A stretch of DNA of 63,573 nucleotides, the filler included, from Craspedostauros australis (Eukaryota): assembly GCA_030167865.1 (NCBI GenBank). It is 25 parts of 25 records of this genome, joined end to end, with 100 filler letters (N's around TTAATTAATTAA, not from the genome) between each part and the next. Parts side by side here need not be neighbours in the genome. Positions count along the whole stretch, not along the records: positions 26,236 to 34,124 come from JALAGF010002056.1; 24 more parts are not named here. One strand, given 5' to 3'. The position numbers were made by a program, and so were the translations under genes. How positions within the stretch are numbered: position 1 is the stretch's first letter; the number at the start of each line of letters is the position of its first letter. Positions 6,853 to 56,404 of the stretch are shown piece after piece. The notes under the pieces were generated by a model. It was not told the DNA's origin. It did no database searches and was given only the letters and a program-made list of their open reading frames with translations.

Positions 6853-6952
6853 NNNNNNNNNNNNNNNNNNNNNNNNNNNNNNNNNNNNNNNNNNNNTTAA
6901 TTAATTAANNNNNNNNNNNNNNNNNNNNNNNNNNNNNNNNNNNNNNNNNNNN

Positions 6953-8116: not shown

Positions 8117-8217
8117 NNNNNNNNNNNNNNNNNNNNNNNNNNNNNNNNNNNNNNNNNNNNTTAATTAATTAANNNNNNNNNNNNNNNNNNNNNNNNNNNN
8201 NNNNNNNNNNNNNNNNC

Positions 8218-11094: not shown

Positions 11095-11721
11095 AGTCGT
11101 AGAAAACGTGTGGACTCGACGTGCGTGCTGTGGTGAAAGGTTTGATTGTGTTTGGTGGTGTTGTCAGTGCGTGCATAGTAATATGAGGTATCAAGGGGAA
11201 CGAAGGTGGAGGATCAAGGTGCAAAGTGAGGAATCGCGTGCAATCAGCAGCGCATGTGAATGATTCTAAACCATGGCGCTTGAACATACTACCTGTGAGA
11301 TGATTGAACTCACTGGTTTCATGGAGAGATAGTGGAATGTGGTTGGTTCTGGCGATGAGCTGCCACCTACTTCTGCTGCTTCTGCTCTCGAGTCCCTTGA
11401 GTCCTCAAGCTCGATGACTACCTGGCTCAATTTATGAGATTGATTTGCGAGTTTGTCAATCGCAACACCCAAATCGATGTTGCACGCCTTGATAGCGTGT
11501 TGTGTGCTCGTTGATTCCAAACATCGTGGTCTCCACGATGTTCACAAGACATGACAAACGTGACGGTGACATGATGTTGTGTTTCTGTGATGTGCGCACA
11601 TCTCAGGTTTTGATTGGAACNNNNNNNNNNNNNNNNNNNNNNNNNNNNNNNNNNNNNNNNNNNNTTAATTAATTAANNNNNNNNNNNNNNNNNNNNNNNN
11701 NNNNNNNNNNNNNNNNNNNNC

Positions 11722-12348: not shown

Positions 12349-14589
12349 TCATGGCATGTGAAGCGCAGTGACCCCATCGCTGTTTTTTAGATCAATCTTG
12401 ATGTCAGCTCCGTCCAGTTCTAACAAATATTCAGAAATGTTGGCGTAGCCCTTTGCGCAAGCAATGTGCAGCGGCGTGTTGCCGTCATTATTTTGGATGT
12501 TGAAGTCCCAGTGATCTTGTTTGTATTTCGATAGAGCCCTGACAATGCGAATGTCTCCACGCTCACAAGCAGCATGAAGGGCAGTGTCGCCGTTGGCGTT
12601 TTGAATGTTCACCCTGACAGTCCTTGGGAACAGTTTCATGGCTTCGTCAACTTTCCTCTCGTCGCAAATGCGCAAGAGAACATGAAGCGCCGTGTCTCCC
12701 TTCTTGTTTTGCCTGTTGAAGTTAATGCTTGCCCGATTCTTGGATATCAGAGATTCAAGTCCTCTGCCATCGATCTTGTTCCAAAATGTCTCTGTGTGGA
12801 ACGGCGCATCATCGTCGGTGAATGGTATGCTTGGGTCAATGTTCCCACCGCGGCACTCTGATAAAAAGTACCTGAAGTCTCCCCGGTCGAGACGCTGTAA
12901 GGCAATATGAAACGGGGTCTCACCTTGGTGGTTCCGCAAGTTGAAGTCGAATCTGTCCCGACCTCTTCCTAGCAAACACCAGATGTTGGTGCCATAATAT
13001 CCCCGAACCGCAATATGAAGCGGAGCGTCGCCATCGTTGTTTTGGATGTTCACGTCGACATGTGACTCCTTGAGAGAAACGATAGCGTAAGCAATATCTG
13101 CGCGATAACCCTGATGTTTGCAAGCAACATGGAGCAGGGCGTTCCCTTCGTTGTTTCGGATGTTCCAGTCGATGTTGCCCTTGGACGCTTCCAGCAACTT
13201 ACGAAAGGTGTCTCGACACTCACGTCTGCATGCGACATGAACAGGAGTATCACCCTTGTTGTTTTGGATGTTAAAGTCAATCGCGTTTGCGTATGTGGAC
13301 AGCAAGAGACGGCAGGAGGCGTGCTGTAAGGCAAGATGGATAGGAGTGTCGCCGTCGTTGTTTCGAACATTGACATCCAGTAAGCCTTTGCTTGATGCAA
13401 CCAAAACTTCCAGTTGTCGCGAGCAATCGTTTCCACACGCATAGTGAAGGGCTGTATTTCCATCATTGTCTTTGATGTTGACGTCAATCACGTCGTTGCG
13501 ACGTTCCAACAATGAAGACAGCATGGATGCGTCACCGTACCGGCATGCTAGGTGGAGCACTGTTCTGCCTCCATTGTCTTTCAGGTTGACGCTATCGTTG
13601 AATTGGTCAAACTTCTGAAGGTATTCCATCGCATCCAAAGGAACGTAGTGCACGACTTGGTGAAGCGGAGTTTGTCCGTATTTGTTTTGGATCTTGATGC
13701 TGGAGCTCGCTGGATCCGACTCTACCATGCACTTCACCATGGTACTACTTTTCTCGCGGCAGGCAACGTGCAACGCAGTCTCCCCGTACGTATTCCTGGC
13801 GCTGAAATCGAGACTGACTCTCTCGGACTTGGTTAGCCACTTGAAAACATCCACATGGCCACCCCGGCAAGCATGATGAAACGCTGTGTCGTTGTCTCGC
13901 CCGCTTCTTCCATTCGCATCAATATCCAATTGCTCTGTTTCAATCAAATGTTTCACCAAGTCCACATGGCCATGACTGCAAGCAGCATGGAAAGGGGACA
14001 ACGCATCTTCGCCATGCAGGTTGACATCCACATTGAGCACGCCCGATTCAGTCAAGTACTCAACAATCTCTTGCCATCCAAGTGCGCAGGCACATCCGAA
14101 TGGAGTCTCGCCAGCTTTGTTCATCACGTTGACGTCCAAGGTGTCATCGTGTGACTCAACCAAGAAGCTCACCATGCCCGTGCTCCCGCGGCGACATGCA
14201 AGATGCAGGACTGTGTCACCATTTGCGTCTTGCGAGTTGATATCCATATTGAAGCGCACTGATTTGGCCAGATACTGAGCCACACTAGTGTGCCCCATCG
14301 CACAAACGACTTGCCATGGTGTTTGGCCACTTGTATTCTTGATGGTGAAGTCGATGCTCTCTGGAATGGACTCAATCAAGTGCTCAACCACGCCCAAGTG
14401 CCCCTCCATGCAAGCGAGATGAAATGGTGTGTTGCCTTGTTCGTCTTTGGTGTTTATGTTGTCGTTGTGTTGGTCAGCCGGGACCAGGAGCCGGACTCTG
14501 TCCAGTTTGCCTGATCGACAAGCATTGTGAAGGACAGAAAAGGCACGAGCCCATCGACCCAGTGGAAACGACATGATGATGAGGAACAC
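12349..14589 (-). CDS. Ankyrin-repeat protein of about 746 aa (version B of 8845-11094)
   Basis: Colinear with version A, with a 3-aa deletion and many substitutions. Confidence 0.92.
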   Translation of the reverse strand: MFLIIMSFPLGRWARAFSVLHNACRSGKLDRVRLLVPADQHNDNINTKDEQGNTPFHLACMEGHLGVVEHLIESIPESIDFTIKNTSGQTPWQVVCAMGHTSVAQYLAKSVRFNMDINSQDANGDTVLHLACRRGSTGMVSFLVESHDDTLDVNVMNKAGETPFGCACALGWQEIVEYLTESGVLNVDVNLHGEDALSPFHAACSHGHVDLVKHLIETEQLDIDANGRSGRDNDTAFHHACRGGHVDVFKWLTKSERVSLDFSARNTYGETALHVACREKSSTMVKCMVESDPASSSIKIQNKYGQTPLHQVVHYVPLDAMEYLQKFDQFNDSVNLKDNGGRTVLHLACRYGDASMLSSLLERRNDVIDVNIKDNDGNTALHYACGNDCSRQLEVLVASSKGLLDVNVRNNDGDTPIHLALQHASCRLLLSTYANAIDFNIQNNKGDTPVHVACRRECRDTFRKLLEASKGNIDWNIRNNEGNALLHVACKHQGYRADIAYAIVSLKESHVDVNIQNNDGDAPLHIAVRGYYGTNIWCLLGRGRDRFDFNLRNHQGETPFHIALQRLDRGDFRYFLSECRGGNIDPSIPFTDDDAPFHTETFWNKIDGRGLESLISKNRASINFNRQNKKGDTALHVLLRICDERKVDEAMKLFPRTVRVNIQNANGDTALHAACERGDIRIVRALSKYKQDHWDFNIQNNDGNTPLHIACAKGYANISEYLLELDGADIKIDLKNSDGVTALHMP

Positions 14590-15215
14590 AGTCGTAGAAA
14601 ACGTGTGGACTCGACGTGCGTGCTGTGGTGAAAGGTTTGATTGTGTTTGGTGGTGTTGTCAGTGCGTGCATAGTAATATGAGGTATCAAGGGGAACGAAG
14701 GTGGAGGATCAAGGTGCAAAGTGAGGAATCGCGTGCAATCAGCAGCGCATGTGAATGATTCTAAACCATGGCGCTTGAACATACTACCTGTGAGATGATT
14801 GAACTCACTGGTTTCATGGAGAGATAGTGGAATGTGGTTGGTTCTGGCGATGAGCTGCCACCTACTTCTGCTGCTTCTGCTCTCGAGTCCCTTGAGTCCT
14901 CAAGCTCGATGACTACCTGGCTCAATTTATGAGATTGATTTGCGAGTTTGTCAATCGCAACACCCAAATCGATGTTGCACGCCTTGATAGCGTGTTGTGT
15001 GCTCGTTGATTCCAAACATCGTGGTCTCCACGATGTTCACAAGACATGACAAACGTGACGGTGACATGATGTTGTGTTTCTGTGATGTGCGCACATCTCA
15101 GGTTTTGATTGGAACNNNNNNNNNNNNNNNNNNNNNNNNNNNNNNNNNNNNNNNNNNNNTTAATTAATTAANNNNNNNNNNNNNNNNNNNNNNNNNNNNN
15201 NNNNNNNNNNNNNNN

Positions 15216-16326: not shown

Positions 16327-17882
16327 ATCAGTTGAGGCTGTTGAGTGATCTTGTTGAAATCTGGATGAGCAAGACAAGCCTTTGTATTTTGAGATACCAC
16401 TCTCATTGCCGCATCTTCCAACACTGAACAGCTGTGTTGATGGGCGAATATCAGCGTATCAATCATGGTGTCCTTTGTGAGGTGCTTGCGAGCCAACTCT
16501 GCTTCAAGAACAAGCTTGAGTCGCCAGAAGCCGAACTCGTTGGCCACAAGGATCAGCTGCTGCAGATCGTGTTGTCCATTGAGGATGGGAGTTGGCTGGT
16601 CATCGCCANCGNCATGNTCGCTCTCATCGAAGGATATNTCCCCCTTGTAGATGCATTCGATGACATGGCGGACATATTTGGGTTGGAGGTCAGGAAGAGC
16701 CACGGTTGTTTGGATGGAGTCAGTGATCGGATCAGCGACAGGATCAGAGACAGGGACAGCGACAGGGTCAGCGACAGGATCAGTGAGAGACTCGTCCCAC
16801 GACGATGACAGCGAGGATGATGATGACGGTGGGGATGATGGCTTGGTCAAAGATACATGGTGGATTCCAGAGTCGATCAATGTTTGGATCGATGGGACGG
16901 TGACCACAAGGACTCCGCTGTTTGCCTTGATCGGTTGTTGTCGGTCGCCTTGTCCACACAGGAAAACGATGTCTGCGTTCGCCTCGGTACGAACAGCGCT
17001 GCAACGATCTTGGCCGATGCTGATGTTGGTCGTTGTGTTGATGTTCGACTTGTTGTGCTTGGTTGTTGCTGTGGCAGTGCTTGTGATGCTTCGTTTGTGA
17101 AGCTGTAGTTGTGAGCTCAGGTGACTGAGACGCTCCATGATCGATCTCATCATGTTGATCTGATGTGTTGGATCGATCACATCGAGGGGTGTTCTGTTGT
17201 TGTTGTTCTTGATGTCGATATCGATGTTAGCGTTGGCTGATTCGATGAGGCACTTGACGCAGTCAGAATGACCTTCGGAGCATGCGAGATGAAGGGGAGT
17301 GTCACCATCGTTGTTTTTGCAGTTGGCGTTGGCCTTCGCAGAGTCGACGAGGTACTTGACACACTCCAGATGACCATTGTAGCATGCTAGATGAAGAGGA
17401 GTGTCATCATTGTCGTTGATGCAGTTGGCGTTGACCTTCGCAGAGTCGACGAGGTACTTGACACATTCGAGATGACCATTGTGGCATGCCAGATGAAGAG
17501 GAGTGTCATCATCTTCGTTTTCGCAGTTGGCATCGGCCTTCGCAGAGTCGACCAGGTACTTGGCACACTCGAGATGACCATATTCGCATGCCAGATGAAG
17601 AGGAGTGGAATCATCTTCGTCTTTGCAGTTGGCATCGGCCTTCGCAGAGTCGACGAGGTACTTGACACATTCGAGATGACCTTCGGAGCATGCCAGATGA
17701 AGAGGAGTGTTACCATCGTCGTCTTCCCAGTTGGCGTCGGCCTTCGCAGACTCGACGAGGTACTTGGCACACTCTAGATGGCCATTTTGGCATGCCAGAT
17801 GAAGAGGAGTGTCATCATTGTGGTTGATGCAGTTGGCATCGGCCTTCGCAGAGTCGACGAGGTACTTGACACACTCCAGATG
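16327..17882 (-). CDS. Ankyrin-repeat plus BTB/POZ protein, partial at both ends. One continuous frame (the ORF track starts late at 17180)
   Basis: Manual translation gives HLECVKYLVDSAKADANC...TPLHLAC x6 at 102-bp period, running in frame into RTPLDVIDPTHQ...ADIVFLCG...VIECIYKG...LILVANEFGFWRLKLVLEAEL. Confidence 0.88.
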
Positions 17883-26235: not shown

Positions 26236-26863
26236 GGATGCCCCTCATGTTCCACTTGTTCGACATCATGCGCGTCAATACTTGGATTGCATTCAATCAC
26301 CTGGCAAGAGAGCAAGATCAATTGGGGAGCAAGGCATTCATGATCGAGATGATTGAGGCTCTGGTCCGCAAAGGGAATGAAGCAGATTTGATGGCAACAA
26401 GGGCAAGCCACCAGAGAGTCCCACACACCATTCGAACAAGGAATCGGATGAGCTCCTGCTCTCCAAAGCTGCCCAGATCGAGGTTGGAGGGGAGATTTGA
26501 AGATCACAAGGAGATCATCAGCAGGGACAGAAGCCAGAAGACTTGCAGATACTGTTCTTACCTTAAAGCAAAAGCAAAGCTCGAAGGCAGGCCAGCACAT
26601 GAACCAAGCAGAGTCAGAAGGATGTGCAGTGTGTGTGGAATCCATGTCTGTAAGCTGCACTGGAATGTATTTCATGGGAAGGATGATGAGAGTACAATCA
26701 ACTCTGACAAAAGTGAACTGACCATTACAGTCTAAAATCCAGTTTAGAGAAAAGTACAGAACTAGTTTTTATACGTAGGACATGGTAAGAAAAAGCCGTA
26801 GAAATCTAACACGGAGGCTTTATAATGGATCTGACAGATCCTTTATGGCTGGTCCAGTAAGGG
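26236..26863 (+). mobile_element. piggyBac-like transposon 3' end: transposase C-terminus (to 26735) and terminus ...CCAGTAAGGG
   Basis: PLMFHLFDIMRVNTWI (end of DDD core), Cys-rich domain CRYC...CSVCGIHVCKLHWNVFH, subterminal palindrome GGATCTGACAGATCC, GGG terminus. Confidence 0.8.
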
Positions 26864-27225
26864 ATATGCTCCTCAGATCCTTTCACTACAACATACCTCG
26901 ATTCCCTCCATGCCAATGACTACTGCACTACTGCTGTAGTCCTGACGTGTATATCCAACCTGCTTCAACTCAAGCAAGGGAATCTAAGAGTGAGCTCCAG
27001 CCACTGCCATTGCTTCATGACTGCCACCATTGAGTGTCATGAACTGCACTGCAGTCTATCTACATGTGAGGAGAGCAAGGAACTGCAATAATTGCCTACC
27101 CTCAAGCACTGAACCAAGTACATCAGTGCAGGGTCCCATCAAGCTGTGTGACATCGTTTCTTCACCCTACCAACACTATAAGCTAAATCATCATCAACAG
27201 ACAAGTATTAGCTACAAATATCAAG
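26864..27225 (+). repeat. Repeat family C (possibly LTR-derived), partial copy
   Basis: Colinear with 54725-55080 (CACTACAACATACCTCGATTCC, GCTTCAACTCAAGCAA, CATCAGTGCAGGGTC, CATCGTTTCTTCACCCTAC). Confidence 0.8.
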
Positions 27226-27242
27226 ATGTCCATGTGAGTATA

Positions 27243-28007
27243 TGTCGAGATGTATGTGAATATGTGCATCGTTCACCCGTTATTCTCTCATACGCACTTG
27301 GACGGTACAACGACATTCGTGTCAATAGTATGCTGTGATTCGTCAGAATCACAGTGGAAATGGAACACACGAAACCGAGCAGAATTTCTGGAGGAAATTT
27401 GCAATCAACGATTTCTGAGAGAATTGGAAATATCGTCCGTCCATCCATCAATGGTACCAAGAGAATCTCGAGGTACTTCCCAACTAAACCTCAGATGACA
27501 ATATCATCTGACAGACTACTGCATCACCAATGGAACGTGACATCTGGAGAGCAGAAGGACGCCTACTGATGTTGACAGGATGTCATTGTGTCACCATGTC
27601 GACATCTGTCTCCATATCAGAGCAGGAGACAAAGATCCGATGACCCATGAAGATCATGGATACTGAAGGTGAACTTCAAATGGTAAGTACTCATGGAGTA
27701 GGAACCAGTACTGAACGAACGGAGTATCGAATGTGGAGTACACATCAAACACGAAGTATCATGTAGTACAAATGCATGATGTTAAGAGAGAGAGAGAGAA
27801 TACGAAGAGTAGCGAGAGAGCATCTCGCACACCGACTCATAGTCAGAGACTGTATCTACGAAACAGACAAACACGCCAAGAGCATCGGGCAAGAGAGAGG
27901 ACACTGAGAGGATCAGAGTACTGATGTAATGAAATAGCAAACAGAACGACTATCAACCAACACCATCTTCCACGATCGTGGGCTTCAGTGAGCGGAACTT
28001 GCCAACA
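27243..28007 (+). mobile_element. Solo LTR, family A (about 765 bp, TG...CCAACA)
   Basis: 3' half matches the LTR before gag at 48240-48806. 5' end matches the reverse complement ending at 34734. No clean TSD. Confidence 0.8.
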
Positions 28008-30511
28008 CATACTCTGCTCTCCTTCAAAGGTGCTCAGCGTCAATCATTATCGCTATCATCATCAGCATTGTTATAATAAGTGATGTTATCTTGCATGGAG
28101 CACTTCACACCACTCTACTTTACTTCACCACTATGTCCAACTTCATTACCACCACCATCTCACTCTTCGTTGATCATGTTTGTTCTACTGTTGCTTGTTG
28201 CTTGTTCATGATGGCGAGTGTTACGTGACGTGGATCGTCGGTTGGATGATGCTGACGACAATATCTTGCAGCGCAGGGGCGGCGTACCCATGGATCTGTT
28301 CGCCGAAGGCTCGTCTTCTGTGCCTTCGTTCTACCATGCAACGCTCGGCTTCTTGCCTGGAGCGCACAAACTGAGAGCAAGAGGAGCAGTCGCCGTTGCG
28401 CACCCCACGGCTGCTGGAGGTACTCGTCGTGCGTTCGAAGTTTCGGTTCAACATCGCGCGCTGACGCAACGGTGGAGGTGATTTCGGTGCGTCCAAGGGC
28501 GCGAAATCGTTCCTGGAGGCCGAACGTGATCTAACAGATGTCGAATGCGAGGTAAATCTGGAACGATGCTATCGACGCCCAGTGGCATTGATCTTGCAGC
28601 GACGGACGCAGCTGGATGAGTCGAGTTCTGTGACGATTGTGACGGTGAAAGCCGATCGCTTTCGTTTCACTCGTTTGGTAGATCGATGTGGGCTCGCCGG
28701 CCGCTTGTCGACGAGCTGCTCATGCTGTGGAAGATGCTGATGTTCAAGGAGGTTGGAGATTTCTGGTTGTCCGACATGTTTTGCATTCACAGCTTACATG
28801 GTAGTATTGTACGTAGTCGTAGTTATCTTGCTCATCCCTCAAGGGGATCGTTTCAAGCATGTCCAGTGATGACTGATTGAACGAATACTCACCATTGCAG
28901 GCTAATTCGTTCATGTTGGCGGCATTGTTGCAGTGAGCTATTGTAGTTGTAAACAACGGCGTGCACCATTTGGAGCTGCTCGAGGGTGACTCCATGACTC
29001 CCATGAGGATAGTGAAGACGGAGTTGACCAAGGAAGAGAGGGGGTGTTTCTGGAGGCTGTGGTGCCATCGGGGCCGACAAGGGTGATCATTCCGTGAAGC
29101 ACCAGAGTCCACTGAGCTGACGCTTGTCTCTCTCTCTCTTGCATCGTTCTTGGCCGATCATGCTGCTGCTGTTGGTGTTGCTCTTGTTTGTGATGTGGGT
29201 GCTGTGCATGATATTCATTGATTTGCTGAGTTGCTTGCGTCTGAGTTGTTGGTGATTCTGATGCAGATGCTGATTTGTGAGAGGAGGACTGACGGGAACG
29301 AAGAGACTTGAAGATCTCGCACGATGAGGACGCCACAAGATGGATGGGGATTCATCGCCAATGCTGAGAGTAGCAGCCATATACATTTGAACACCCTGGC
29401 GCGATCGTTTGGATGTTGCACAGGCGTTCGCCAAGAGCAATCGATCTGGTTTGGCATCTTCAGGGACGTTGCAGGTTCTCAACTGCGACAGCACCTCCTG
29501 TTGTGGGGGGACCATTTGTGTTGTGGTTGCAAGCATCCGTGGATGCTGGTGCTCTTGTCTATTGATGGCTCATGGGACAACCACTGTGGCAATATGAGTG
29601 ATGGAATGCTGGAGTATTGGCATATGGAAATGGGGGATCATCCTATCCCTCCATCATCAGGAGCGCCGATGACTCGCTGGTCAAACTTGTTGGGAACACG
29701 ATCGTTCATTTCAGCGCCTTCATACGTACTCGTAGTAGTACAATGCATCGCGCATTTCCCATGTGCGGTTCTCAGGCAACCATGTTGCCGATTGGACTCC
29801 TTGGGGGATACGCGTACATCGTGACGTGCGATGGTTGCAATTGAGATTGTGATCATCTTGGTGTTCTCCCCATCGCATCATCGCTGTTGGCGTCATCATC
29901 ACTTTCGTGGTCGTTTCGAGTTGACGATCAGTCCTTCTCGTTTGAACGCCTTTCTGACGTGTCCTTCTCATGAAAGAAGCTAATAAAGTACTTCATTGAC
30001 ACACAGAATTCGTGAAATTGGGAACATCTCGGCACACGCAAAAGTGGTGAAGTGAGAATCCACGATTCCCATTTGCGGTGTTCTCGTGTTCGCAACGGCG
30101 ATCTTGTGGGGGTGTGTCGTGTTCTGTTCCTTCTTCTCGTTGTTGTGTGCGCCAGTTCGCAGTCAGCAAAAGGAAGGATCCCCACTCTCCGCACAGCGCT
30201 GGTCCCTCTCCCAAACCAGGGTGCGATCAAGAAGCAGACAAACAGAGAAACGAGGAGAGAAACGGGAGAACATTGAAACGAGGCAACCGCACACACCGCT
30301 CAACCCCATACTCCAACACATCAACAACAGACATCGAACTGCCACTCATATTCATCACACAGTGCATGGTACTCACGCAAATACAAGGTAGCACAGACAC
30401 ACCATCGATATCTCTGCCATAGATAGCTCGAACTTCGCACTTCCTCGACAGCCAATCCAACACCAATCGTCCAACGTCAATCGTCGAGCAACCATCGACC
30501 ATCCTCTCACA

Positions 30512-33234
30512 ATGCAGAGTGTTACAAACAAACAACTCCTTTGGGCTGCCGAGGCAGGTGACTTGTCAGTGTTAAAGGAATGGAACAAGCAGAACAAGAC
30601 ACGGAACGAAGGAGTTGATGTCAACTGCGAAGACGACTATGGTCGGTCTCCTCTTCATAAGGCATGCTTACGTGGCCACCTGGAGTGTGTGAAGTACCTC
30701 ATCGAATCATGTGGGGCGAACATCAACTGCAAAGACGACGATGGCTGGACTCCCCTTCATTGGACATGCAATAGCAGCCAGCTGCAATGTGCCAAGTACC
30801 TCATCGAATCATGTGAGGCGAACATTGACAGCAAAACCAGCGATGGTTTCACTCCCCTTCATTTTGCATGCCGCAGCAGCCACCTTGAGTGTGCGAAGTA
30901 CCTCATCGAATCATGCAAGGCAAACATCAACGGCAAAACCAGCAATGGTTCCACTCCCCTTCATTGGGCATGCCGGAACGGTCAGCTGGAGTGGGCTGAG
31001 CACATCATCAAATCCTGCGGGGCGAACATCAACTGCAAAGACAACAATGGTTCCACTCCCCTTCATTGGGCATGCCGCAGCGGCCAGCTGGAGTGTGCGA
31101 AGTACCTCATCGAATCATGTGGCGCGAACATCAATGGCCAAAACAACCATGGTTGGACTCCCCTTCATTGGGCATGCCGCATCGGCCAGCTGGAGTGTGT
31201 GAAGCACCTCATCGAATCATGCGGGGCGAACATCAACTGCAAAGACGACAATGATTCCACTCCCCTCCATCACACATTCATGGATGGCCAGCTAGAGTGT
31301 GTGAAGTACCTCATCGAATCATGTGGAGCGAACATCAACTGCAAAGACAACAATGATTCCACTCCCCTTCATTGGGCTTGCCACAACGGCCATCTGGAGT
31401 GTATCGAGTACCTCATCGAATCATGTGGGGCGAACATCAACTGCCAAAACAACCATGGTGACACTCCCCTTCATTGTGCATGCCGCTATGACCAGCTGGA
31501 GTGTATCGAGTACCTCATCAAAGCATGTGGGGCCAATGCCAATTGCGAAGACGACGATCGTGACACTCCCCTTCATTTTGCATGCTGCATCGGCCAGCTG
31601 GAGTGTGTGAAATACCTCATTGAATCATTTGAGGCGAACATCAACTGCGAAGACAACCATGGCTTCACTCCCCTTCAATATGCACACTGCAGCGACGAGC
31701 TGAAGTGTATCGATTACCTTGTCAAATCATGTGGGGCGAACATCAACGGCAAAACCAGCGATGGTTTCACTCCCCTTCATTTTGCATGCCCCAGCGGCCA
31801 CCTGGAGTGTGTGAAGTACCTCATCGAATCATGTGGGGCCAACGCCAATGGCGAAGATGACGATTGTGACACTCCCCTTCATCTTGCATGCTGCATCGGC
31901 CAGCTGGAGTGTGTGAAATACCTCATCGAATCATTTGAGGCGAACATCAACTGCGAAGACAACCATGGCTTCACTCCCCTTCAATATGCACACTGCAGCG
32001 ACGAGCTGAAGTGTATCGATTACCTTGTCAAATCATGTGAAGCGGACATCAACTGCAAAACCAGCGATGGTTTCACTCCCATTCATTTTGCATTTGGCAG
32101 CGGCCACCTTGAGTGTGTGAAGTACCTCATCAAATCATGTGGGGCCAACGCCAATGGCGAAGACGACGATCGTGACACTCCCCTTCATTATGCATGCCGC
32201 AACGGCAAGTTGGAGTGTATCGAGTCCCTCATTGGAGGAGTTTCGCCTTCAGCTTACCCACAACTGCAACAACGCTCGCAACAAAACGAGCAAGAGAATG
32301 AACAACTGCAGCAACAGTTGAAGCTAAAGGAACACAAGAATGAACAACTGCAACAACAGTTGAGAAAGCAGTTGAAACGGAAGAAGCAAGAGAATGAACA
32401 CAAACACGGCAACCACAAGAGGACCAAAATCAACAGTGGAGAAGACTGGCTCAGATCCTTCCGAACCAAGAACAGGGCAGACACCATCTTTTGTATGGAC
32501 AGGGCGACGACCAGCCACCAATCAAGGCAAACATCGAAGTCCTCATGGTCACCGTCCCATCCATTCAGACACTGATCAACTCTGGAATCCAACATCAGAA
32601 GGCGAATGATGGCACTGAAGACCGCACGGCCCCCATGCAATCAGCCATCTCTCTTCCCAACTTTCAATCAAAACACGTTCGACATGTCCTCCAATACATC
32701 TACACAGGCGAGATATCGTTCGACAGCAACACTCATGACGACACTGACAATGATGATGCAAATCAGCCAACTCCCACCCTCAATGGACAGGACGATCTGC
32801 AACAGCTGATCCTTGTGGCCAACGAGTTCGGCTTCTGGCGACTCAAGCTTGTTCTTGAAGCGGAGTTGGCCCGCAAGCATCTCACAGAGGACACCATGAT
32901 AGACGCATTGATTTTTGCCGATCAACACAACTGCGTGGTGTTGAAGGATATGGCGGTGAGAATGGCAGCTGAAAGTGAGAAAGATATGTTCACTCATCTA
33001 GATTTAAGCAAGCTGATTCTACAACCCCAACTGATGACGGAGATCCAGGTGTTTTGCAGTGGGAGAGCCAAGAGTGAGGGTATTGATGATGAGTACAGCC
33101 GTATGTCCATGATGGAGCTGCACAACGTTGTCGATGAGGATGAGGGTACAGCACAAGTGGATTCATTCATGGATTGGGCAACATTGGTGGACTTCGTCCG
33201 CTCCATGAGAACCAGCTCTATGAGAACCAATTGA
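30512..33234 (+). CDS. Ankyrin-repeat (16 x 34 aa), coiled coil and BTB/POZ protein, split by a 1-nt frameshift at 32489-32492
   Basis: 102-bp repeats TPLH.AC..G.LECVKYLIESCGANINC. Adding one T gives ADTIFLYGQGDDQPPIKAN, matching the paralogue ADIVFLCGQGDRQQPIKAN. The block LQQLILVANEFGFWRLKLVLEAELARKHLT is shared. Confidence 0.88.
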
Positions 33235-33817
33235 TCCAAAGTGATTGTGGTGGACGGCACTGCCGAGGAAGAGGAGTGAAGTGTCAGACCATACCAAATC
33301 ATAACAGCAGTCTTCGAGAAGTGAACGCATGACAGAATTGAGTTGATGGATAAAAATAGTTGTCAGAATAGTCATTAGGACAATAACTGTGTGAAAGGAA
33401 CTGGAGCAACTTGAGATCCAATCATTGAATGGTGCGTCCGCCATGCCTTCACTGTCGCCTTTGGTGATGTGCACAGCATGCTGCTCTGCATGCTGCTCCA
33501 TGCAGTCCCGTATCGTTCGCAGCACGGTCTGGCTAATCCGCGAGATACGCATGGTCTTCTGTGCATGAATTGCAGATGATCCCGGTTGGTGTAAGGCACG
33601 TTTGGTGTGCAGCATCATTGGCCAATGCGACATGAAGACGATGGTTCAGCCACCGCTGTCATCGTGGTTGTCATGCCAATCATATGATTTCCGCGTTCGT
33701 TGGTGTCAATGATGTGGAAGGAGCTGCGTGGGAAACGATGGCGGACCCCGCGGGCATCATACATGGCTTGTAGGAATCGAGTCCAACTTGATGAAGTGGA
33801 GCCTATTGCGACTGTCA

Positions 33818-33822
33818 GCTTG

Positions 33823-33854
<32 letters not shown>

Positions 33855-33864
33855 GGTGGTGGTG
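33818..33864. repeat. Compound microsatellite, about (TTG)7(GTG)8
   Basis: Read directly. Confidence 0.9.
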
Positions 33865-34224
33865 CAGTTCGTGCATGATGTCGTGCAAGGCACACGCGTA
33901 TGCCAGCAGCTGCATGGTTTCGTTGTGGTCGACAAAGATAACGAGCAATGGGAGAAGTCGCCGACATCATTACACACAATTTCTTTCATCTGTGGATGGG
34001 ACGAGACAGTGCCTCTGTCTCATCGTTTGGGGTTTGTGGCAGCGACGCGTCGCTTTGAGCATCGGTATGAACAAGCGTGGCTAGTTGTGGTGCGTGCTGT
34101 GGAAACTGAGGAACATCTCCGAACNNNNNNNNNNNNNNNNNNNNNNNNNNNNNNNNNNNNNNNNNNNNTTAATTAATTAANNNNNNNNNNNNNNNNNNNN
34201 NNNNNNNNNNNNNNNNNNNNNNNN

Positions 34225-39741: not shown

Positions 39742-40054
39742 GCGAAATGAAACTACTGAAATGCATGATGAGATGCATGCAGAGAGCAGGAGATGGAATA
39801 TCTGAGATGAATGATAAGATGCACCGATACTGCAAGATGAGATGTACATGAAGTGCATGATGCATGACATGATGAAGCAGGAGACAGCACTACATGAGCA
39901 AGGGCAAGACTGTGTGCTACTGTGGATTATGTATGTTGTGGCAAATGAAATTGAAAGAGATGGAGATGTTGTACTCACAGTTCCAACAATGCAACAACAG
40001 GAATAGGTAATCAGATACTACTACTAGAGACTGGGTTACCCCGGATTTCCAACA
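39742..40054. mobile_element. LTR family B terminal portion interrupting the LRR domain
   Basis: Ends CTGGGTTACCCCGGATTTCCAACA. The LRR consensus breaks at exactly this point (LELEEN|CWKSG). Confidence 0.85.
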
Positions 40055-40850
40055 GTTCTCTTCCAGCTCAAGACCTGCCAAAGATGCAAATAGACCAATT
40101 TCGGATGGAAACTGCCCAGTGAAGCCGTTGAAATTCAGGTCAAGATGTCGCAATGCTGTCAATCGACCAATCTGAGAAGGAAGTGGTCCAGTGAAGCTGT
40201 TGTAATCCAGGCCAAGGCGTGCCAATGATGTCAGCAGGCCAATCTCGGATGGAAGCTGCCCAGTGAAGCCGTTGTAAACCAGGTCAAGGCATGCCAATGA
40301 TGTCAGCAGACCAATTTTGGATGGAAGCTGTCCAGTGAAGTCATTGTAATCCAGATCAAGATGTCGCATTGCTGTCAATCGACCAATCTGAGAAGGAAGT
40401 GGTCCAGCGAAGTTGTTGGAATCCAGGTCAAGACGTGTCAATTGTGTAAGTTGATGTATTTCTGACGGAAACGCACCTCGCAGTTCCATGTACACTAGAG
40501 TTAGCTCTGATAGCATACTCAACATGCCAATGTGACTGAAGATGATACCATCGATCTGTCCGCGAGTGCTGGAAGTCGTTTCCATTGACCATTGCTCAAG
40601 GTGTGAGAGATGATACAGGGCTGGATCGAGCGTGCCCTGCATGCCTTTGTCACCCAAAGCTACTTGTACCACATGGCCATTATCGCATGTCACACCACCA
40701 GAGGAAGAGTGCCAGTTGCACAGGTCAGTATCTGATAGAAAGCCCATCTTGTCGTTCCAATTGGCTCCATCGAGTGAAAAGTACATGCTCGCTACTACAT
40801 AGTATTCCAACAGGTGTGATGCATAGGCCTGCGCATTTCCTGTGATCATT

Positions 40851-41617
40851 TGTTGGAAATCCGGGGTTATTGTTAGTACTGTAATCAAATCCGCTGTTAG
40901 AAACTGTACCGTTTTAGAACTGTGAGCACAATCTCACTTTCTCTTCCGATTTCATTCTTCATGGTAGGCATCTGTCGCGGTGGCGACACGGGGCGTCCTG
41001 TTGTTCTTAGGTGCTTCTCTCCCCATTCATCATGCTCTGTTCTTGCTTCCTTGTCCTGGCATCGTTGTTGCTTGCCTCTGCATCGTTGTAGCTGTCTACG
41101 CTCGCATGGTAGGGATCTGCAGTCCTGAGCACTTGCCTATCACATGTTTCCGTCGTTGATCTCATGACGCCATCGTCCTACGATCGATGTCAACCTTGGT
41201 GATGTTCCAAACCTGCGGATGTTCTGATCCTTTCTGATGTTCCAAACCTGCAGATGTTCTTGTCCGTAGGAGGGGCGCGTGCTGTCCTCTGAAGGGGGTG
41301 CGTCACTTGCCCATCGGTCGGCTGTTCTGATCGACGTCGTCGTCTGCATGGTTGCTATGGTTGGTTTGGTATTGGGACCTCCTGATCCGCCATGGGTGTC
41401 GTCCTTACGTTACCAGAGGACAGACTACCCTCCTTGCGGTAGTACAGGTGTCAATTGCGTCCGTATCCTTAGTCATAGTCATAATGACATGGTATACAAA
41501 GGTGTGACAAATAGTCTCCGAACATGTGACGAATAATATTCAAAGCTGTGACGAATAATGTTGGGAGGTGCGGCAATCACGGGTATTACAACAAAGTCGT
41601 ACCCTCAATTCCTAACA
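40851..41617. mobile_element. Solo LTR, family B, 767 bp, TGTTGG...CTAACA, with 6-bp TSD ATCATT
   Basis: ATCATT at 40845-40850 and 41618-41623. Confidence 0.9.
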
Positions 41618-41768: not shown

Positions 41769-41940
41769 TGACAATTCTCACTGAATTCCTAACTTCTTAC
41801 TTCTTTACTAATCGTACTAGTCAAAATACTGGTCGGAGGTTGTCCTCGGACAACATTCACAAATAAACAACAAGAGCTCCGACCAGGGCACGCAACACCA
41901 GGCCAATACGTCTACCATAGTTGCTTGTGCATGTTTGACA
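41769..41940. mobile_element. 172-bp solo LTR or TRIM-like insert, TG...CA, with 5-bp TSD GAAAG
   Basis: GAAAG at 41764-41768 and 41941-41945; removal restores the host frame. Confidence 0.85.
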
Positions 41941-41979
41941 GAAAGCATCCGATTGATCGGAGCTGTACGTTGGGTTCGA

Positions 41980-42437
41980 CGAGGGTAGATCACTCGGTAT
42001 ATCCGAGGGTAGATCACTTGGTACATCCGAGGGTAGATCACTTGGCATATCCGAGGGTAAATCACTTGGTACATCCGAGGGTAGATCACTTGGTACATCC
42101 GAGGGTCGATCACTTGGTACATCCGAGGGTAGATCACTTGGTACATCCGAGGGTAGATCACTCGGCATATCCGAGGGTAGATCACTCGGCATATCCGAGG
42201 GCAAATCACTCGGTACATCCGAGGGTCGATCACTTGGTACATCCGAGGGTAGATCACTTGGCATATCCGAGGGCAAATCACTCGGTACATCCGAGGGTAA
42301 ATCACTCGGCATATCCGAGGGTAAATCACTCGGTATATCCGAGGGCAGATCACTTGGTATATCCAAGGGTAGATCACTTGGTACATCCGAGGGTAGATCA
42401 CTCGGTATATCCGAGGGCAGACCACTCGGTATATCCG
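41980..42437 (-). repeat. 12/24-bp coding tandem repeat encoding PSD[I/V/M]PSD[L/R], about 38 tetrapeptides
   Basis: CCGAGGGTAGATCACTTGGTACAT units. Confidence 0.95.
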
Positions 42438-43451
42438 TGGGTGTGTGGGTTGGATTTTGTGATGGCTGATCAAGGGGGCCATCTGCGGTGGGCGGATTTC
42501 TCCTGCTGCCATCTATGTTGCTGTTGCTGCTGTTCTCGCCACTGGGGGAGAACACTACTCCTGCTGCAATGGCACCAGCTACGCCGACGACCAGGAACAC
42601 CACAGTAACAACACCTTTCCAGCTCCATCCTGCAGGATTATCACCATTTTCAGGGACGACCTCTGGAACTGCATCTGGAAGATCGATTTCATTCTCTGAG
42701 CTATCATCAGGGTTGTGTTGATGTCCTGGTGTTTGAGTTTCGAACAGTCGCGAAATCCTATGCAATTCCCTTTGCGTTTCAGCTATCCTTTGAGCTTGCA
42801 GTTCTGCTTCAGACGCGGTTGAGGCAATGGGAGCTGTGGGAGCAGTGGGAGCAATGGGGATTTCTGGCGGCAGTTCTGCTTCAGACGCATCATGTGTTGT
42901 CTCTTCATCCATTGTTGGGTATGAATTTGGCTGCGGCTGCGGCTGTGTAGTTGGGCTGTGCGTCGGTTGCACCAGCGACGAAGATGTGAATGGCACATGC
43001 GCAATACTTGGGCTCTCTCTGCCTCTCTCGAGATCGTGAGTGGTGGTGGTCACTGGAATAGGTTGTTGATGTATTGTGGGGGTGAGGAAATAAGATGCTC
43101 CAAACGATTTCAGGCATGCCAACAAGATCAATGTTGGGCGAGGCAGAGAGAGCAACTTCGCTTCTCTGCAGCAACAATCCCTTGATCGCACTAACCAGTG
43201 ACGTCGTGGTGGCATTTGCACCACGTTTGTCATTTGCATCCGTGGCGATGATAGTGGGCAGCTGAGGTGTCAACCATTGGTAGTGGTGCCCTTTCGTACC
43301 GTTTCGTACGCATTGGTGCTGTATCGTCCCCCATCGCACACGCTGTACTCGTACCACGCACTCTGACACTCATCCTTCTACTTCCACAGATGTTCTTTGC
43401 TTTCACGCACACGGACCGAACAGCCAAAGCGGTAATACTCGTCCGCTTCTT

Positions 43452-48888: not shown

Positions 48889-50434
48889 ATGAGCGAGGAA
48901 GAGGAATTGAAAGACATCCCTCTGTCCAATCTGGCTATCAAGCAAGAAGAAGGTGCGAGTGAGACTCAACCTCAAAATGAGAAGGAAGCAGCTGCGGCTA
49001 CTGTCCTATCAGGCACAGAAGCAAGCGCAATCAACGAGACCGAAGAGGAACGGTCTGCAAGACTACACCGTAAGGAGAAGAGGATCCTCAAGGCGATCAA
49101 GCAAGAGGAGACTGGTGTGACGGAGAGCATTCGCACAGCCAAACAGAGTGGGAAAAGTGAGACACCACCAGGAGGAGAATTTGTGACGAAAACAATCTCC
49201 GTGAAACAACTAGCGAAATTCAAAAAAGTGACAACACAGAAACAGACGGAAATCAAGGGCGCGAGCGCACCAACAACGAAACAACAAATCAACATGGCGA
49301 CATCAGCCAACATGAACAAGCAACGCATCAAGGCGCCGATGTTCAGCAGTGAACAGGAAGACTACAGCGCATGGGAGTCTCAAGCGAAGGCGTACGCTTG
49401 TGCACAGAAGACGAGAGACGTGATGTTGGGCAAGACCAAGGTCCCAACAGTGAGTGAGATCGCGGCAGCCGCCGACGATGCCAAGGAAGCGATGGAAGAG
49501 ATCTACGAGCTGGGATGCGACTGCTTCAGCGATCTGATCCTCATGATGGATGCAGAGAAAGGAAAAGGCAAGCAGGCCATCCAGTACATCAACCAGTGCA
49601 TCTCCAACGATTATCCCAAAGGAGATCCACACGCAGCGTGGAACGTTCTCGCGGAGAAGTTCCGTCCATCTGATGCAGCGACGAAGATCAAGCTCAAGCA
49701 TCAATTCAACAATGAAAAGATGAAGAGAGACATGGACCCCGACGTCTACATCACGCGACTCGTGCTCCTACACTCGTGTCTCCACGATGTTGGTTACACG
49801 ATCACCGATGAGGAGATGATCATGCAAATCCTCAGCACGGTGAGCAGCGAATACAGAACACACATTGTGAGCTTCCATCATCAACTCACGTTTAATCCGG
49901 AAGTGGTTACCATCAATGCGATCAGAGGAATACTCCGCACAGCACACACTACTCACCAAGGAGGAAAGGCGTACGTCGATGACTTCCAAGACAGCAACAT
50001 GAAGAGCAATGACACCGGCTTCACGAGCACCAGTAACTTCAAGGGGACCTGCCACAACTGTGGTGTGTATGGTCACAGATCTGCGGATTGCCCCGAGCGT
50101 AAGAAATCGAACAACAAGAAAAACAACAACAACAAAATGAACGGAAAGCGCAACAACAACCGCAACAAGGGAAACGGCTTCAACAGGAAGTGCAACTACT
50201 GTGGCATCTTTGGACACTGCGAGGCAGAGCGCCGAAAGAAGAAGTTCAACGAGAAGAAGAAGGCTGACGAGCAGGCCAACACAGCAACACAAGGACATGA
50301 CAAGAGCGGACACAAGATGGTACTCTCAGCAAAGGACATGCCGCTCTGCATGTTGGTGTCTGACAACTACATTGACGACTCCTTCTTCAAAAACTTCGAG
50401 TGCATCAAAAGTGACGACGAAGTACAGGACGATG
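48889..50434 (+). mobile_element. Copia gag ORF with two zinc knuckles, the second degenerate
   Basis: DYSAWE, AWNVLAEKFRP, DPDVYITRL, CHNCGVYGHRSADC, CNYCGIFGHCEAER. Confidence 0.9.
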
Positions 50435-50534
50435 NNNNNNNNNNNNNNNNNNNNNNNNNNNNNNNNNNNNNNNNNNNNTTAATTAATTAANNNNNNNNNN
50501 NNNNNNNNNNNNNNNNNNNNNNNNNNNNNNNNNN

Positions 50535-52908
50535 ACTGCGCCTGTCAAGGCAAAGTTGTTGGCTCAACTCAATGGGATGCGGTTGAAGAAAGGCGAGCAC
50601 CCAGACACGTTCCTAACCGAAATGGAAGTGCTGCGTAATCGCCTCGGTAGTACTGGTATCAAGATAGATATGCAACAGTACCACATGCTCGTACTCAACG
50701 CCCTCGGAAGGGAATACGAGACGGACGTCAAGCTCTTGGAGCTCAAGTTCGACGGTATGGAGAATACCATGACCCTCAAAGACATCCGCGAGGCTGTCAG
50801 TGCCACCTACGACGGCCGATACCTCAAACTCGGCAGCAATAGACGTGAGAACAATAGCAACAAGGAAGAGACTGCATTCGCTGCAGTAGGAGGTTTCAAA
50901 GGTCACTGCCGCAACTGTGGTGCCTACGGCCACAAGAAAGCAGACTGCCGCTCCCCCCCCAAGAAAGACAACGGCAAGAACAAGAAGAGTGGCCAAGGAG
51001 TCAACAACAGCAAGCCCAAGTTCAATGGGGAATATAAGTACTGCGGTAAGAAGGGACACAAGATCCTACAGTGCTTCAAGCTGAAGGCAGCCATGAAAGA
51101 GGCAGACTCGGCTAATGTGGCAACTGATGGGATGGAGGGAAATAACGACGTAGCTCTTGTGATGACAGATGAGTTAATTTGTGTGCCCACCTCAGGAAAC
51201 ACGAACGAATTGGAAAATGTGACCAACTTGTCTGTGAACACAGGCGAGGCGAAAACACGCGACAACAACAGCAACTACCAAGTTGACTCCAAGGTAATGG
51301 AGGACGTCGCCTTTGCAGCCATCGTCGAACAGACTGACACATCTCCCATTCTTTCTTTGAGACCACACAACGTCAACAACAAGATGAGTAACTCCAACCA
51401 AGGACAAGAATCCTACTACGACGCAAGCCTCACCAACGAAGGGGCCACCGACACCGAGGACGTGGATGACGACATGGGCGATGCCAACCGAGAAGAAGCG
51501 GCACGTCGCCCTATCTTCAACTTCGCCCCAGAACTCTCTCGTGTGGACCGCATGATCGGGAACTCGACAGGGCTTACCACCAACACGGCCTGGTGCCCTC
51601 TGTGCCTCAAGCGAGGACCACTCTACGCATGGTGCGTGGAATGCCCCCAAGTTCCTTTCTTCATCCAGCTCCACAATGAGCCGAGTGGCAATGTGCCAAC
51701 CAACGATGAAGAGCGCTCGGAGCGACGCACCAGACTCGAAAGAGCCGGCTCCCTCCGCAACGCTGTGCGAGCATCGTTGAGCAACGTGCTCCAAGCCAAT
51801 GATGTGCGAAACGAACTCGCCCTATTGTGCTACGACGCTGTAGCTACTCACACCGGGGACCGCACTCCACTGATCGAGCCGCGGACGATGTACTTCAAAC
51901 TGCACGAGATCGGGATGCACACCACACTGGGAGTGTGCCGCAACCCATGCAACATCAACAACAGCTTGGAATCCCGTCGCTTCGACCCCCTCCCCAGCGA
52001 TCTGATTTCGCGCTTGACCCACCATGCCGCGAACTCCATCCATTGGACCTATCATCAAGGTGACGGCGGGGTCCGAAACCCAAGTCCAGAACACTGGGTG
52101 CTACCGATCTACTCTGAACAGTCAGAGCAACACGAAGTGGCAATGGTGGTGGGCAACACCGACAACGTCAGCGCAAGGCGCTCCTCCGTCGCACCGGACA
52201 ACGACGAGTCCAACACCTGGCTGGGCGATTCGGGCGCATCGTGCCATCTCACCAACAACGATGAAGGGATGACCAACGTTCGCGTCTCCGATCAGAACGT
52301 GAAGATCGGGAGCGGACGCTTCCTCAAGGTGACCAAGGTGGGGGACAAACGCATGACAGTCATGCAAAGGAACGGAAGGAAGTACAACGTGGTGCTCAAG
52401 TCGGTGAAGTACGTGCCCAAACTTTGGATCAATCTACTGAGCATCAACAAGGCTCTCGAGAGCGGATTCAACATCAGCAACCTCGGCGTCATCATGACTC
52501 TGAAGAAAGGCAAGGCCCGCATCAGCTTTGATCGCATCATGGCGACTCATAGCAACTTCGTCTGCGGAGTGACCATGGTGAACAACGCCAAAACGGACGA
52601 CCAAGCTCATGTTGGTGTGTCAACCGACGCACCAGTCGACATCAACACAATNNNNNNNNNGTTAGGCCACGTTGACGCGTACACCATCTCTCGAACAGCA
52701 GGGAGGTACGGCTGGAACGTGACAGGAAAACTGAACGTGTGTGTTGACTGCGCGATTGGGAAATCGCGACAGAGACCGATGTCGAAAGCAACTCAACAAC
52801 GAGCGAAAGGAGTCGGGGATCGACTGTTCATGGACACATCAAGTGTTCAGACACACAGCCTGGGAAAGGGCAAATACTGGCTTCTTGTGATCGACGATTA
52901 CAGTGACT
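50535..52908 (+). mobile_element. Copia gag, long insert, protease, pre-integrase and start of integrase in one ORF
   Basis: CRNCGAYGHKKADC, WLGDSGASCH, VKYVPKLWINLLS, LGH...CVDCAIGKSRQ, YWLLVIDDYS. Confidence 0.93.
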
Positions 52909-53008
52909 NNNNNNNNNNNNNNNNNNNNNNNNNNNNNNNNNNNNNNNNNNNNTTAATTAATTAANNNNNNNNNNNNNNNNNNNNNNNNNNNNNNNNNNNN
53001 NNNNNNNN

Positions 53009-56398: not shown

Positions 56399-56404
56399 GT
56401 CCTC

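Follow-up and report, generated by a model that had tools for sequence, protein, structure and literature searches.

Positions 30512-33234 (plus strand) of the window, by which we mean the whole 63,573-nucleotide stretch of Craspedostauros australis DNA analysed here, carry an ankyrin-BTB (ANK-BTB) gene. The feature is real and is a gene. With a probability that we put at roughly 0.6, it is a single-exon gene for the subunit that recognises substrates in a cullin-3 RING ubiquitin ligase, bearing a recently expanded ankyrin array; the cullin-3 adaptor function is inferred from homology. The encoded protein is ordered as an N-terminal cap, 16 ankyrin repeats, a Q/E/K-rich linker with a basic cluster, a BTB-BACK module of the type found in SPOP and the plant BPM proteins, and a degenerate SAP-like tail. 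In the mechanism that we propose, the BTB-BACK would dock on cullin-3, the ankyrin array would occupy the place where SPOP and BPM carry their MATH domain, and the target would sit against the concave face of the ankyrin solenoid.

The N-terminal two thirds of the protein are laid out as follows.

30512..30622, plus strand: start codon (the first ATG of the open reading frame) and N-terminal capping half-repeat, residues 1-37
30623..32254, plus strand: 16 tandem ankyrin repeats of 102 bp or 34 residues, unit i starting at 30623+102(i-1) and unit 16 being the C-terminal cap
32255..32437, plus strand: Q/E/K-rich linker, read from the translation, with the basic cluster KRKK...HKRTK (residues 622-639, 32375-32428)

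The open reading frame (ORF) at 30512-32575, in frame 2, translates into the cap followed by 16 units whose TPLH-type anchors lie exactly 34 residues apart. Tandem Repeats Finder returned a period of 102 bp over 30621-32232 (15.8 copies, 77% matches, 0% indels) and a super-period of 306 bp (83% matches), and Pfam Ank matched in 16 stretches (486.7 bits, E=1.8e-152; Ank_2, 544.7 bits), which places the units in the ankyrin repeat families PF00023 and PF12796. The 16 repeats of 102 bp described in a first-pass annotation of this DNA were thus confirmed, in register, by all three routes, and every one of the hairpin and helix-1 strings that it listed was found in the translation; its "near-invariant" DNA scaffold was an overstatement. 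Pairwise DNA identity among repeats 1-15 averaged 77% (range 67-97%) and mean inter-repeat protein identity was 58%; the 48-mer given as the scaffold occurred exactly in one of the 16 units, with up to 5 mismatches in 8 and with up to 8 mismatches in 11, and the 12-mer ACTCCCCTTCAT was exact in 11 of the 16. As a control, an unrelated 17-repeat ankyrin gene in the window showed an inter-repeat protein identity of only 24%. At T9, P10, L11, A14, L20, L26, S29 and A32, one synonymous codon was retained in 11-14 of the 15 repeats, and the retained Leu codon differed with unit position (CTT, CTG and CTC at three positions). Because a single residue keeps different codons at different positions, the likeness of the repeats reflects shared DNA ancestry and not codon bias.

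P0094, a C. australis protein with the same start, has an N-terminus that shares 60% identity with residues 1-64, and a low-confidence model gave the N-cap helices at residues 6-15 and 18-30. A single-sequence AlphaFold2 model of the array, with a mean predicted local distance difference test score (pLDDT) of 63 (low confidence) and used for helix positions only, had helices at unit positions 10-16 and 20-30, which would place unit positions 13 and 16 in helix 1 and positions 5-8 in the preceding hairpin. The unit is unusually rich in Cys, with conserved Cys residues at positions 2, 15, 22 and 30 in 10-15 of the 16 units, and its 34 residues correspond to the canonical 33 plus one extra residue before the G-A-N loop. 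The linker is 63% identical to that of P0094, basic cluster included; it may form a coiled coil and may contain a nuclear-localisation signal, and the protein may be nuclear.

The array was built recently through in-register tandem duplication, including duplication of a 306-bp three-repeat block, after the gene had split from a paralogue that is also present in the window.

31541..32152, plus strand: two copies of the 306-bp three-repeat block, the most recent duplication (repeats R10-12 at 31541-31846, R13-15 at 31847-32152)
16327..17882, minus strand: another member of the family, on a different contig whose joins truncate it at both ends (tblastn, translation P0001, Pfam)
32764..32901, plus strand: tract of about 138 bp of the BTB that is nearly identical to the paralogue (synonymous divergence, dS, 0.22 versus about 0.9 in both flanks; DNA alignment)

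The block duplicates share 95% (R10/R13), 97% (R11/R14) and 92% (R12/R15) of their DNA and 90% of their protein sequence over 102 amino acids (aa). The term "homogenised", used in the first-pass annotation, therefore fits this duplicated block, in the sense applied to fungal repeats (>85% identity over >=100 aa), and does not fit the array as a whole, with its 58% aa identity. In the paralogue, a single continuous frame encodes six or more similar ankyrin units of 34 residues, followed by a linker and a BTB-BACK. Its units are 82% identical in DNA among themselves and only 67% identical to those of the focal gene, and dS came to 0.33 among the focal units and 0.29 among those of the paralogue, as against 0.75 between the arrays and 0.65 between the BTB-BACKs. 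As dS within arrays is lower than dS between genes, each array must have expanded or been homogenised after the genes separated. The tract at 32764-32901 looks like gene conversion or exchange among family members, given the drop in dS and the sequence depth of run X1, whose greatest summed depth fell in the 32761-32867 bin. A Sawyer-type permutation test for shared tracts gave a sum of squared fragment lengths above that of every one of 2000 permutations, whether R13-15 were included or not; we did not count this result, since adjacent low-variability sites mimic such a signal without recombination.

The gene belongs to a multicopy diatom family, as the first-pass annotation had proposed: a second copy lies in the window, the closest named relative, P0094, is a diatom protein, and 907 of the 30,610 contigs of run X1 fell on the 3.2-kb locus at 90% identity or more. 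These contigs comprised 172 at 99% or more, 293 at 95-99% and 442 at 90-95%, a spread that suggests numerous close variants in that organism; the RNA nature of run X1 is only a guess. Two pieces (30444-30583 and 32205-32324) were covered without a difference. Some X1 contigs join repeats in orders unlike that of the window, with short sides of 20-39 letters, and these may be paralogues or assembly artefacts. Runs X2 and X3 contained nothing for the locus, scans of metagenome contigs with a single protein and with a smaller alignment (A2) gave zero relatives, and word-indexed protein searches returned only P0003, P0004 and P0094. Outside run X1, the ANK-BTB family is rare. It is so far a small, lineage-specific and multicopy family known from a diatom plus environmental or JGI (Joint Genome Institute) sequences, and no diatom ANK-BTB family was found described in titles or abstracts of the literature. 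Relatives from elsewhere had 1-7 recognisable 34-residue units with 18-51% mutual identity, versus 58% in the focal array. P0094 matches the focal gene collinearly at both ends, in N-terminus, linker and BTB, yet has a single ankyrin unit in the place of the 16, which is either a real and extreme difference in repeat number or a collapse of the array in a short-read transcript assembly.

Since the duplications, the codons that determine the fold have been conserved, and replacements on the binding face appear to have accumulated faster than silent changes. The six positions randomised in DARPins, which we take to be 2, 3, 5, 13, 14 and 33, correspond to unit positions 5, 6, 8, 16, 17 and 3 when the mapping is anchored on TPLH. 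Among the 34 positions of repeats 1-15, amino-acid entropy ranked unit positions 3, 5, 6, 8, 16 and 17 as numbers 8, 6, 5, 3, 1 and 4, respectively, and entropy was concentrated at these canonical binding-face positions (Mann-Whitney p=2.3e-4), so that the variation lies mainly at ligand-binding positions, as first suggested. The second most variable position, unit 13, corresponds to ankyrin position 10, which is among those randomised in the ANK-N5C library. Natural ankyrin repeats are most variable at positions 2, 3, 5, 10 and 13, and the ANK-N5C library was randomised accordingly (PMC4308713); fast divergence of repeat copies is reported as a universal post-duplication phase across life (PMC5120217). 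The coincidence with DARPin positions exists because the designs copied natural variability. The pattern of binding-face variation is therefore generic for ankyrin repeats and for newly duplicated repeats, and the description as a "natural DARPin" is true of what is largely ordinary ankyrin behaviour.

Selection was counted over repeats 1-15 throughout, the C-cap unit 16 being excluded. Nei-Gojobori averages gave a framework dS of about 0.31; the ratio of nonsynonymous to synonymous divergence (dN/dS) was about 1.5 at binding positions as against 0.57 at the others. Under a Goldman-Yang codon model, with the maximum-likelihood tree of the 15 units kept fixed, omega was estimated as follows.

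6 DARPin positions: omega 5.5; against omega=1, twice the log-likelihood difference (2ΔlnL)=5.7, p=0.017
6 ANK-N5C positions: omega 5.7, p=0.02
14 core positions chosen a priori: omega 0.46, p=0.017 (below 1)
13 remaining positions: omega 1.26, not significant
all 34 positions: omega 1.0, log-likelihood equal to that at omega=1

At unit positions 3, 5 and 6, the proportion of silent differences (pS) was 0 and that of replacement differences (pN) was 0.24-0.34, and the youngest duplicates, R10-12 versus R13-15, differ by 11 replacement and 5 silent changes. The dN/dS check proposed in the first-pass annotation thus did not refute it, the value at binding positions being not 1 or less but an omega of about 5.5 (likelihood-ratio test p ~0.02).

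By homology and predicted fold, the C-terminal part of the protein is a BTB-BACK of the SPOP/BPM type.

32438..32491, plus strand: first BTB elements (GEDWLRSFRTKNRADTIF), still in the ankyrin frame, collinear with the paralogue (...ANADIVFLCGQGD) and with P0094 (...RTDTIFLCGQGD); alignment A1
32491..32892, plus strand: rest of the BTB, in frame 1, with a family-specific insertion in the α3/β4 loop (Pfam, AlphaFold2, Foldseek)
32893..33060, plus strand: BACK/3-box-like helical hairpins (Pfam, model, alignment to SPOP BTB-BACK chains)
33103..33231, plus strand: C-terminal helix-loop-helix, a degenerate SAP-like tail (column-by-column alignment with the SAP segments of relatives)

A phmmer search with the C-terminal 247 aa against 1.84 billion representatives gave 91 matches at E<=1e-3, 17 of them at E<=1e-10. 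When 30 of the phmmer matches were scanned with Pfam, 8 proved to be ANK+BTB proteins, 14 carried MATH (mostly as MATH-BTB-BACK_BPM_SPOP) and 8 had a BTB without either; in the 8 ANK-BTB relatives, the Pfam BTB scored 24-34 bits over profile positions ~4-109. The combination of an ankyrin array with a BTB, as first annotated, is also upheld by Pfam and by the paralogue and P0094, in which ankyrin, linker and BTB parts lie in one frame. An AlphaFold2 model of the BTB-BACK from 33 aligned sequences, which is without the first helix and strand because these are encoded in the other frame, reached a pLDDT of 88.1 and a predicted template-modelling (pTM) score of 0.84, with the putative BACK helices at 136-189, aligned to the SPOP BTB-BACK. 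The top Foldseek matches in PDB were BTB and BTB-BACK chains of SPOP (4j8z_A, target-normalised template-modelling (TM) score 0.69, root-mean-square deviation 2.7, 175 columns), and 17 PDB matches at E<=1e-3 indicate that the modelled domain has a BTB fold; complexes of KBTBD2-CUL3 and of vaccinia A55-CUL3 stood lower in the list. A PDB profile search also ranked SPOP first, which is not independent evidence, since the profile includes MATH-BTB rows. In keeping with the link to cullin-3 drawn at the outset, the predicted module is of the SPOP/BPM type, whose solved relatives are cullin-3 adaptors. Complex prediction for two copies of the BTB-BACK of P0004 (residues 342-560) gave no verdict, at a score of 0.00.

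The SAP likeness of the tail rests on the alignment with relatives only: Pfam SAP (PF02037) gave no match on the focal copy at E<=0.1. SAP was matched by 7 of the 30 scanned relatives, and the tail helices lie at 207-216 and 229-246 in the focal model. The distant relatives P0029, P0032-P0034, P0036, P0039 and P0040 are (MATH-)BTB-BACK proteins ending in a Pfam SAP, a combination of which no discussion was found in the papers listed.

The span 30512-33234 is not one open frame, as the first-pass annotation, which overlooked a frameshift, had read it. The ankyrin ORF in frame 2 ends at 32575 and the BTB ORF, in frame 1, occupies 32491-33234.

32489..32492, plus strand: frameshift site, one base absent from a T run relative to relatives (DNA alignment, X1 contig, ORF frames)
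33232..33276, plus strand: TGA stop, with SKVIVVDGTAEEEE next in the same frame, similar to the genuine C-terminus of P0003 (VIEIDGTAEEER)

In a DNA alignment with the paralogue, the focal gene is one base short at 32490/32491, within the T run. A single X1 contig has an extra C right behind 32490, with a depth of 60.3 out of 158.6, and the depth without the extra base was about 98 of 158.6. The junction is read through in one frame in the paralogue (...ADIVFLCGQGD...) and in P0094 (...TDTIFLCGQGD...). Since it takes one added base, at about 32490, to bring the two frames together, the assembled copy lacks one base. An intron in place of the frameshift was considered and rejected: the sole nearby GT...AG pair read (32493...32568, 76 nt) is of the wrong length class and its removal would delete conserved BTB strands, and the paralogue and P0094 are collinear through the site. 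The focal copy is thus either mis-assembled or mis-sequenced at the T run or a very young pseudogene of an otherwise functional family. In addition, the stop may be premature by about 14 codons, given the resemblance of the in-frame SKVIVVDGTAEEEE to the P0003 tail; the family as a whole does not preserve the acidic tail beyond the stop. Just ahead of the TGA, at 33200-33229, is a 15-bp tandem duplication (SMRTS/SMRTN).

Several observations weigh against the gene being a functional cullin-3 receptor whose binding face is under positive selection. With one base missing at about 32490 and a stop that is possibly premature, the copy may not make the full protein. On the focal copy, Pfam BTB (PF00651) scored 20.1 bits against a cut-off of 20.5 and matched only profile positions 52-84, a partial match that is due to the splitting of the domain by the frameshift; BACK_BPM_SPOP scored 17.9 bits against a cut-off of 27.4 (ORF residues 136-162), and the BACK of the paralogue scored 17.4 bits against 20.9. 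The φ-x-E motif in the α3/β4 loop inserts into cullin-3, and its φ residue buries most surface in known cullin-3 complexes (PMC3616122). This motif reads I-Q-H in the focal copy and I-H-H in the paralogue, that is, the Ile is kept and the Glu is replaced by His, and the third place is N, D, T or P in other family members; the alignment becomes uncertain after the motif, where a long variable insertion follows. The residue of SPOP that we take to be φ aligns with the conserved Ile. The complete φ-x-E of a SPOP/BPM-type cullin-3 adaptor was therefore not found; one defining contact would be kept and one would not, and binding to cullin-3 is put forward as a putative property, on the strength of homology. 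As for selection, only 3 of the 11 replacements in the youngest duplicates fall on the 7 binding-face codons (of 34), roughly what chance alone would put there. The estimates of omega come from 6-7 codons in 15 short paralogous units and from a tree derived from the same data, recombination is likely, and p is only ~0.02. The overall omega of 1.0 also fits a general relaxation of repeats after duplication, such as PMC5120217 describes.

Of the alternatives to a functional receptor with a selected binding face, the most serious, though one that we hold to be somewhat less likely than not, is ordinary ankyrin-repeat evolution, in which constraint simply leaves the exposed positions to vary under relaxed selection after duplication and there would be no role as a rapidly evolving receptor. 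The high natural entropy at positions 2, 3, 5, 10 and 13, from which the libraries were designed (PMC4308713), and the accelerated divergence of repeat copies across life (PMC5120217) are what this explanation predicts, and the omega of 1.26 at the 13 other surface positions and the lack of binding-position enrichment in the youngest duplicates (3/11 on 7/34 codons) agree with it. Relaxation alone, however, gives an omega of 1 or less, not about 5.5 at binding positions chosen a priori (p ~0.02), and three of the binding codons have zero silent differences despite many replacements. It is less probable, though still to be reckoned with, that the focal copy is a young pseudogene of the ANK-BTB family, its frameshift and early stop being real and its raised dN/dS being partly a product of decay. 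Such decay would account for the base that the focal gene lacks by comparison with the paralogue, P0094 and one X1 contig, for the in-frame tail after the TGA at 33232 that is homologous to the tail of P0003, and for the whole-unit omega of 1.0; moreover, the X1 depth of ~98 of 158.6 without the extra base implies that the frameshifted form, or a similar paralogue, is also present in X1. Against it stand the purifying selection on core codons (omega 0.46, p=0.017) and the 2-kb ankyrin frame, which is open across 16 repeats, so that any inactivation must be very recent; single-base errors are, besides, common at sites such as this one, a T run in a draft of low quality, and the acidic tail that is cut off shows no conservation among family members.

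That the BTB-BACK does not recruit cullin-3 at all seems unlikely to us. The protein would then act in the nucleus or on chromatin as a scaffold or regulator, forming oligomers by way of its BTB in the manner of many BTB proteins and engaging partners through the ankyrin array. The absent Glu of φ-x-E and the variable insertion in the cullin-3-contacting α3/β4 loop would suit such a protein, and the basic cluster of the linker together with the SAP-like tail hints at a nuclear, nucleic-acid-associated role. Yet the nearest solved relatives and folds (SPOP, KBTBD2, KBTBD4, KEAP1 and KLHL) are all cullin-3 adaptors, a BACK/3-box follows the BTB as it does in them, and the φ residue is kept as Ile. 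We regard as improbable the proposal of a hypervariable immune or allorecognition receptor family that shuffles conserved ankyrin repeats and directs its targets to ubiquitination. The family is multicopy with many variants of 90-99% identity in X1, its arrays were turned over after gene duplication, omega on the binding face is above 1, and there is precedent in the ANK/TPR/WD arrays of fungal NLRs (PMC4986451). The X1 contigs with other repeat orders and the long shared tracts that exceeded all 2000 permutations could be added, but the former have short sides (20-39 letters) and their joints could come from paralogues or assembly artefacts, and the permutation test is confounded by clustered low-variability sites. 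In addition, the array identity of 58% aa is far under the fungal criterion of >85%, and the protein has no death or signalling domain. A fuller version, to which we give as little credence, would have diatoms possess lineage-specific cullin-3 receptors in which MATH was replaced by a modular ankyrin array, repeatedly rebuilt by duplication and exchange and positively selected on its binding face, serving a germline-diversified recognition of non-self or of rapidly evolving targets (viral, bacterial or mating-related); if true, this receptor system would be a protist counterpart of the high-conservation NLR repeats of fungi and of expanded MATH-BTB families.

Compared with known systems, the putative cullin-3 receptor comes closest to SPOP and the plant BPM proteins (MATH-BTB-BACK), which share its subtype of BTB and BACK/3-box, follow next after the ANK-BTB group as relatives, and likewise carry the recognition domain N-terminal to the BTB. 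They differ in having MATH where the focal protein has a 16-repeat ankyrin array and Q-rich linker; identity to SPOP is only 17-19%, and the focal protein has the long α3/β4 insertion and His for the Glu of φ-x-E. An ankyrin array is also paired with a cullin-docking module in ABTB1/BTBD11 (ANK-BTB) and in NPR1 (BTB-ANK). The same holds for the ASB proteins (ANK-SOCS box, CUL5) and the poxviral ANK/F-box proteins, in which an ankyrin recognition array is likewise joined to a cullin-docking module (PMC3779351 and PMC4353913). All of these differ from the focal protein in docking module or domain order, and none was a sequence relative in phmmer or Pfam searches, although NPR1 (7tad) was among the weaker fold matches of the BTB-BACK model. 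MATH-BTB families, too, have expanded in some lineages (PMC4091423 and PMC6883508).

With the fungal NLRs (HET-E/D/R and Pa_3_8560; PMC4986451), the focal gene has in common 33-34-residue, DNA-related ankyrin units, variation in the inner helix and hairpin of the concave face and, tentatively, traces of positive selection there. It differs in that the NACHT/NB-ARC or death domain of those proteins is absent and the output domain is a BTB-BACK. High internal conservation in the fungal repeats, in the same source, means >85% identity over >=100 aa (PMC4986451; Dyrka et al. 2014); the focal array, at 58% aa and 77% DNA identity, lies below this level, and only R10-12 versus R13-15 reaches it (90% over 102 aa). 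The focal units are near the ankyrin consensus, and DARPins and ANK-N5C were both among the strong PDB sequence matches, their randomised positions being those that vary here; the focal unit differs from theirs in having 34 residues instead of 33, in being Cys-rich and in a framework that is far from invariant.

The gene is a modest variation on known adaptor types; it represents a gene family particular to its lineage and no new kind of system. Should the family be functional, a SPOP-type cullin-3 docking module would have been coupled in diatoms to a different and easily expandable recognition domain, and its members would be candidates for the study of target-specific protein degradation in diatoms, in which, to our knowledge, almost nothing is known of the substrate receptors of ubiquitin ligases. 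The gene also offers a compact natural example of an ankyrin array soon after its expansion, in which the fold positions are retained and the binding face is diverging. Involvement in defence or self-recognition would be of note, and we raise it as a possibility only.

The window is a concatenation of short unplaced contigs, joined by an artificial linker of 44 N, TTAATTAATTAA and 44 N that is seen, for example, at 2112-2211 and 34125-34224 and at about 30 more sites. Since the joins are artificial, genes on either side of one are not physical neighbours and their adjacency is meaningless. The draft is of low quality, with short contigs and scattered single N. The ANK-BTB gene sits on the piece 26236-34124, and a Rfam scan of its contig gave zero matches. 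Elsewhere in the window are fragments of Copia-type long terminal repeat (LTR) retrotransposons at 6905-8161, 48889-50487 and 50487-52961 (all plus strand), with gag-pre-integrase, Retrotran_gag_2 with a zinc knuckle, and a Pol beta-barrel domain. Other ORFs are a leucine-rich-repeat ORF at 39920-40933 (minus strand), an ORF with PT repeats at 41860-43269 (minus strand) and a fragment of an AMP-binding enzyme at 56315-57235 (plus strand). The different ankyrin gene that served as our control is present in two near-identical copies, alleles or recent duplicates, at 8845-11163 and 12349-14658 (both minus strand), and has about 17 repeats of 36-38 residues with 24% mutual protein identity.

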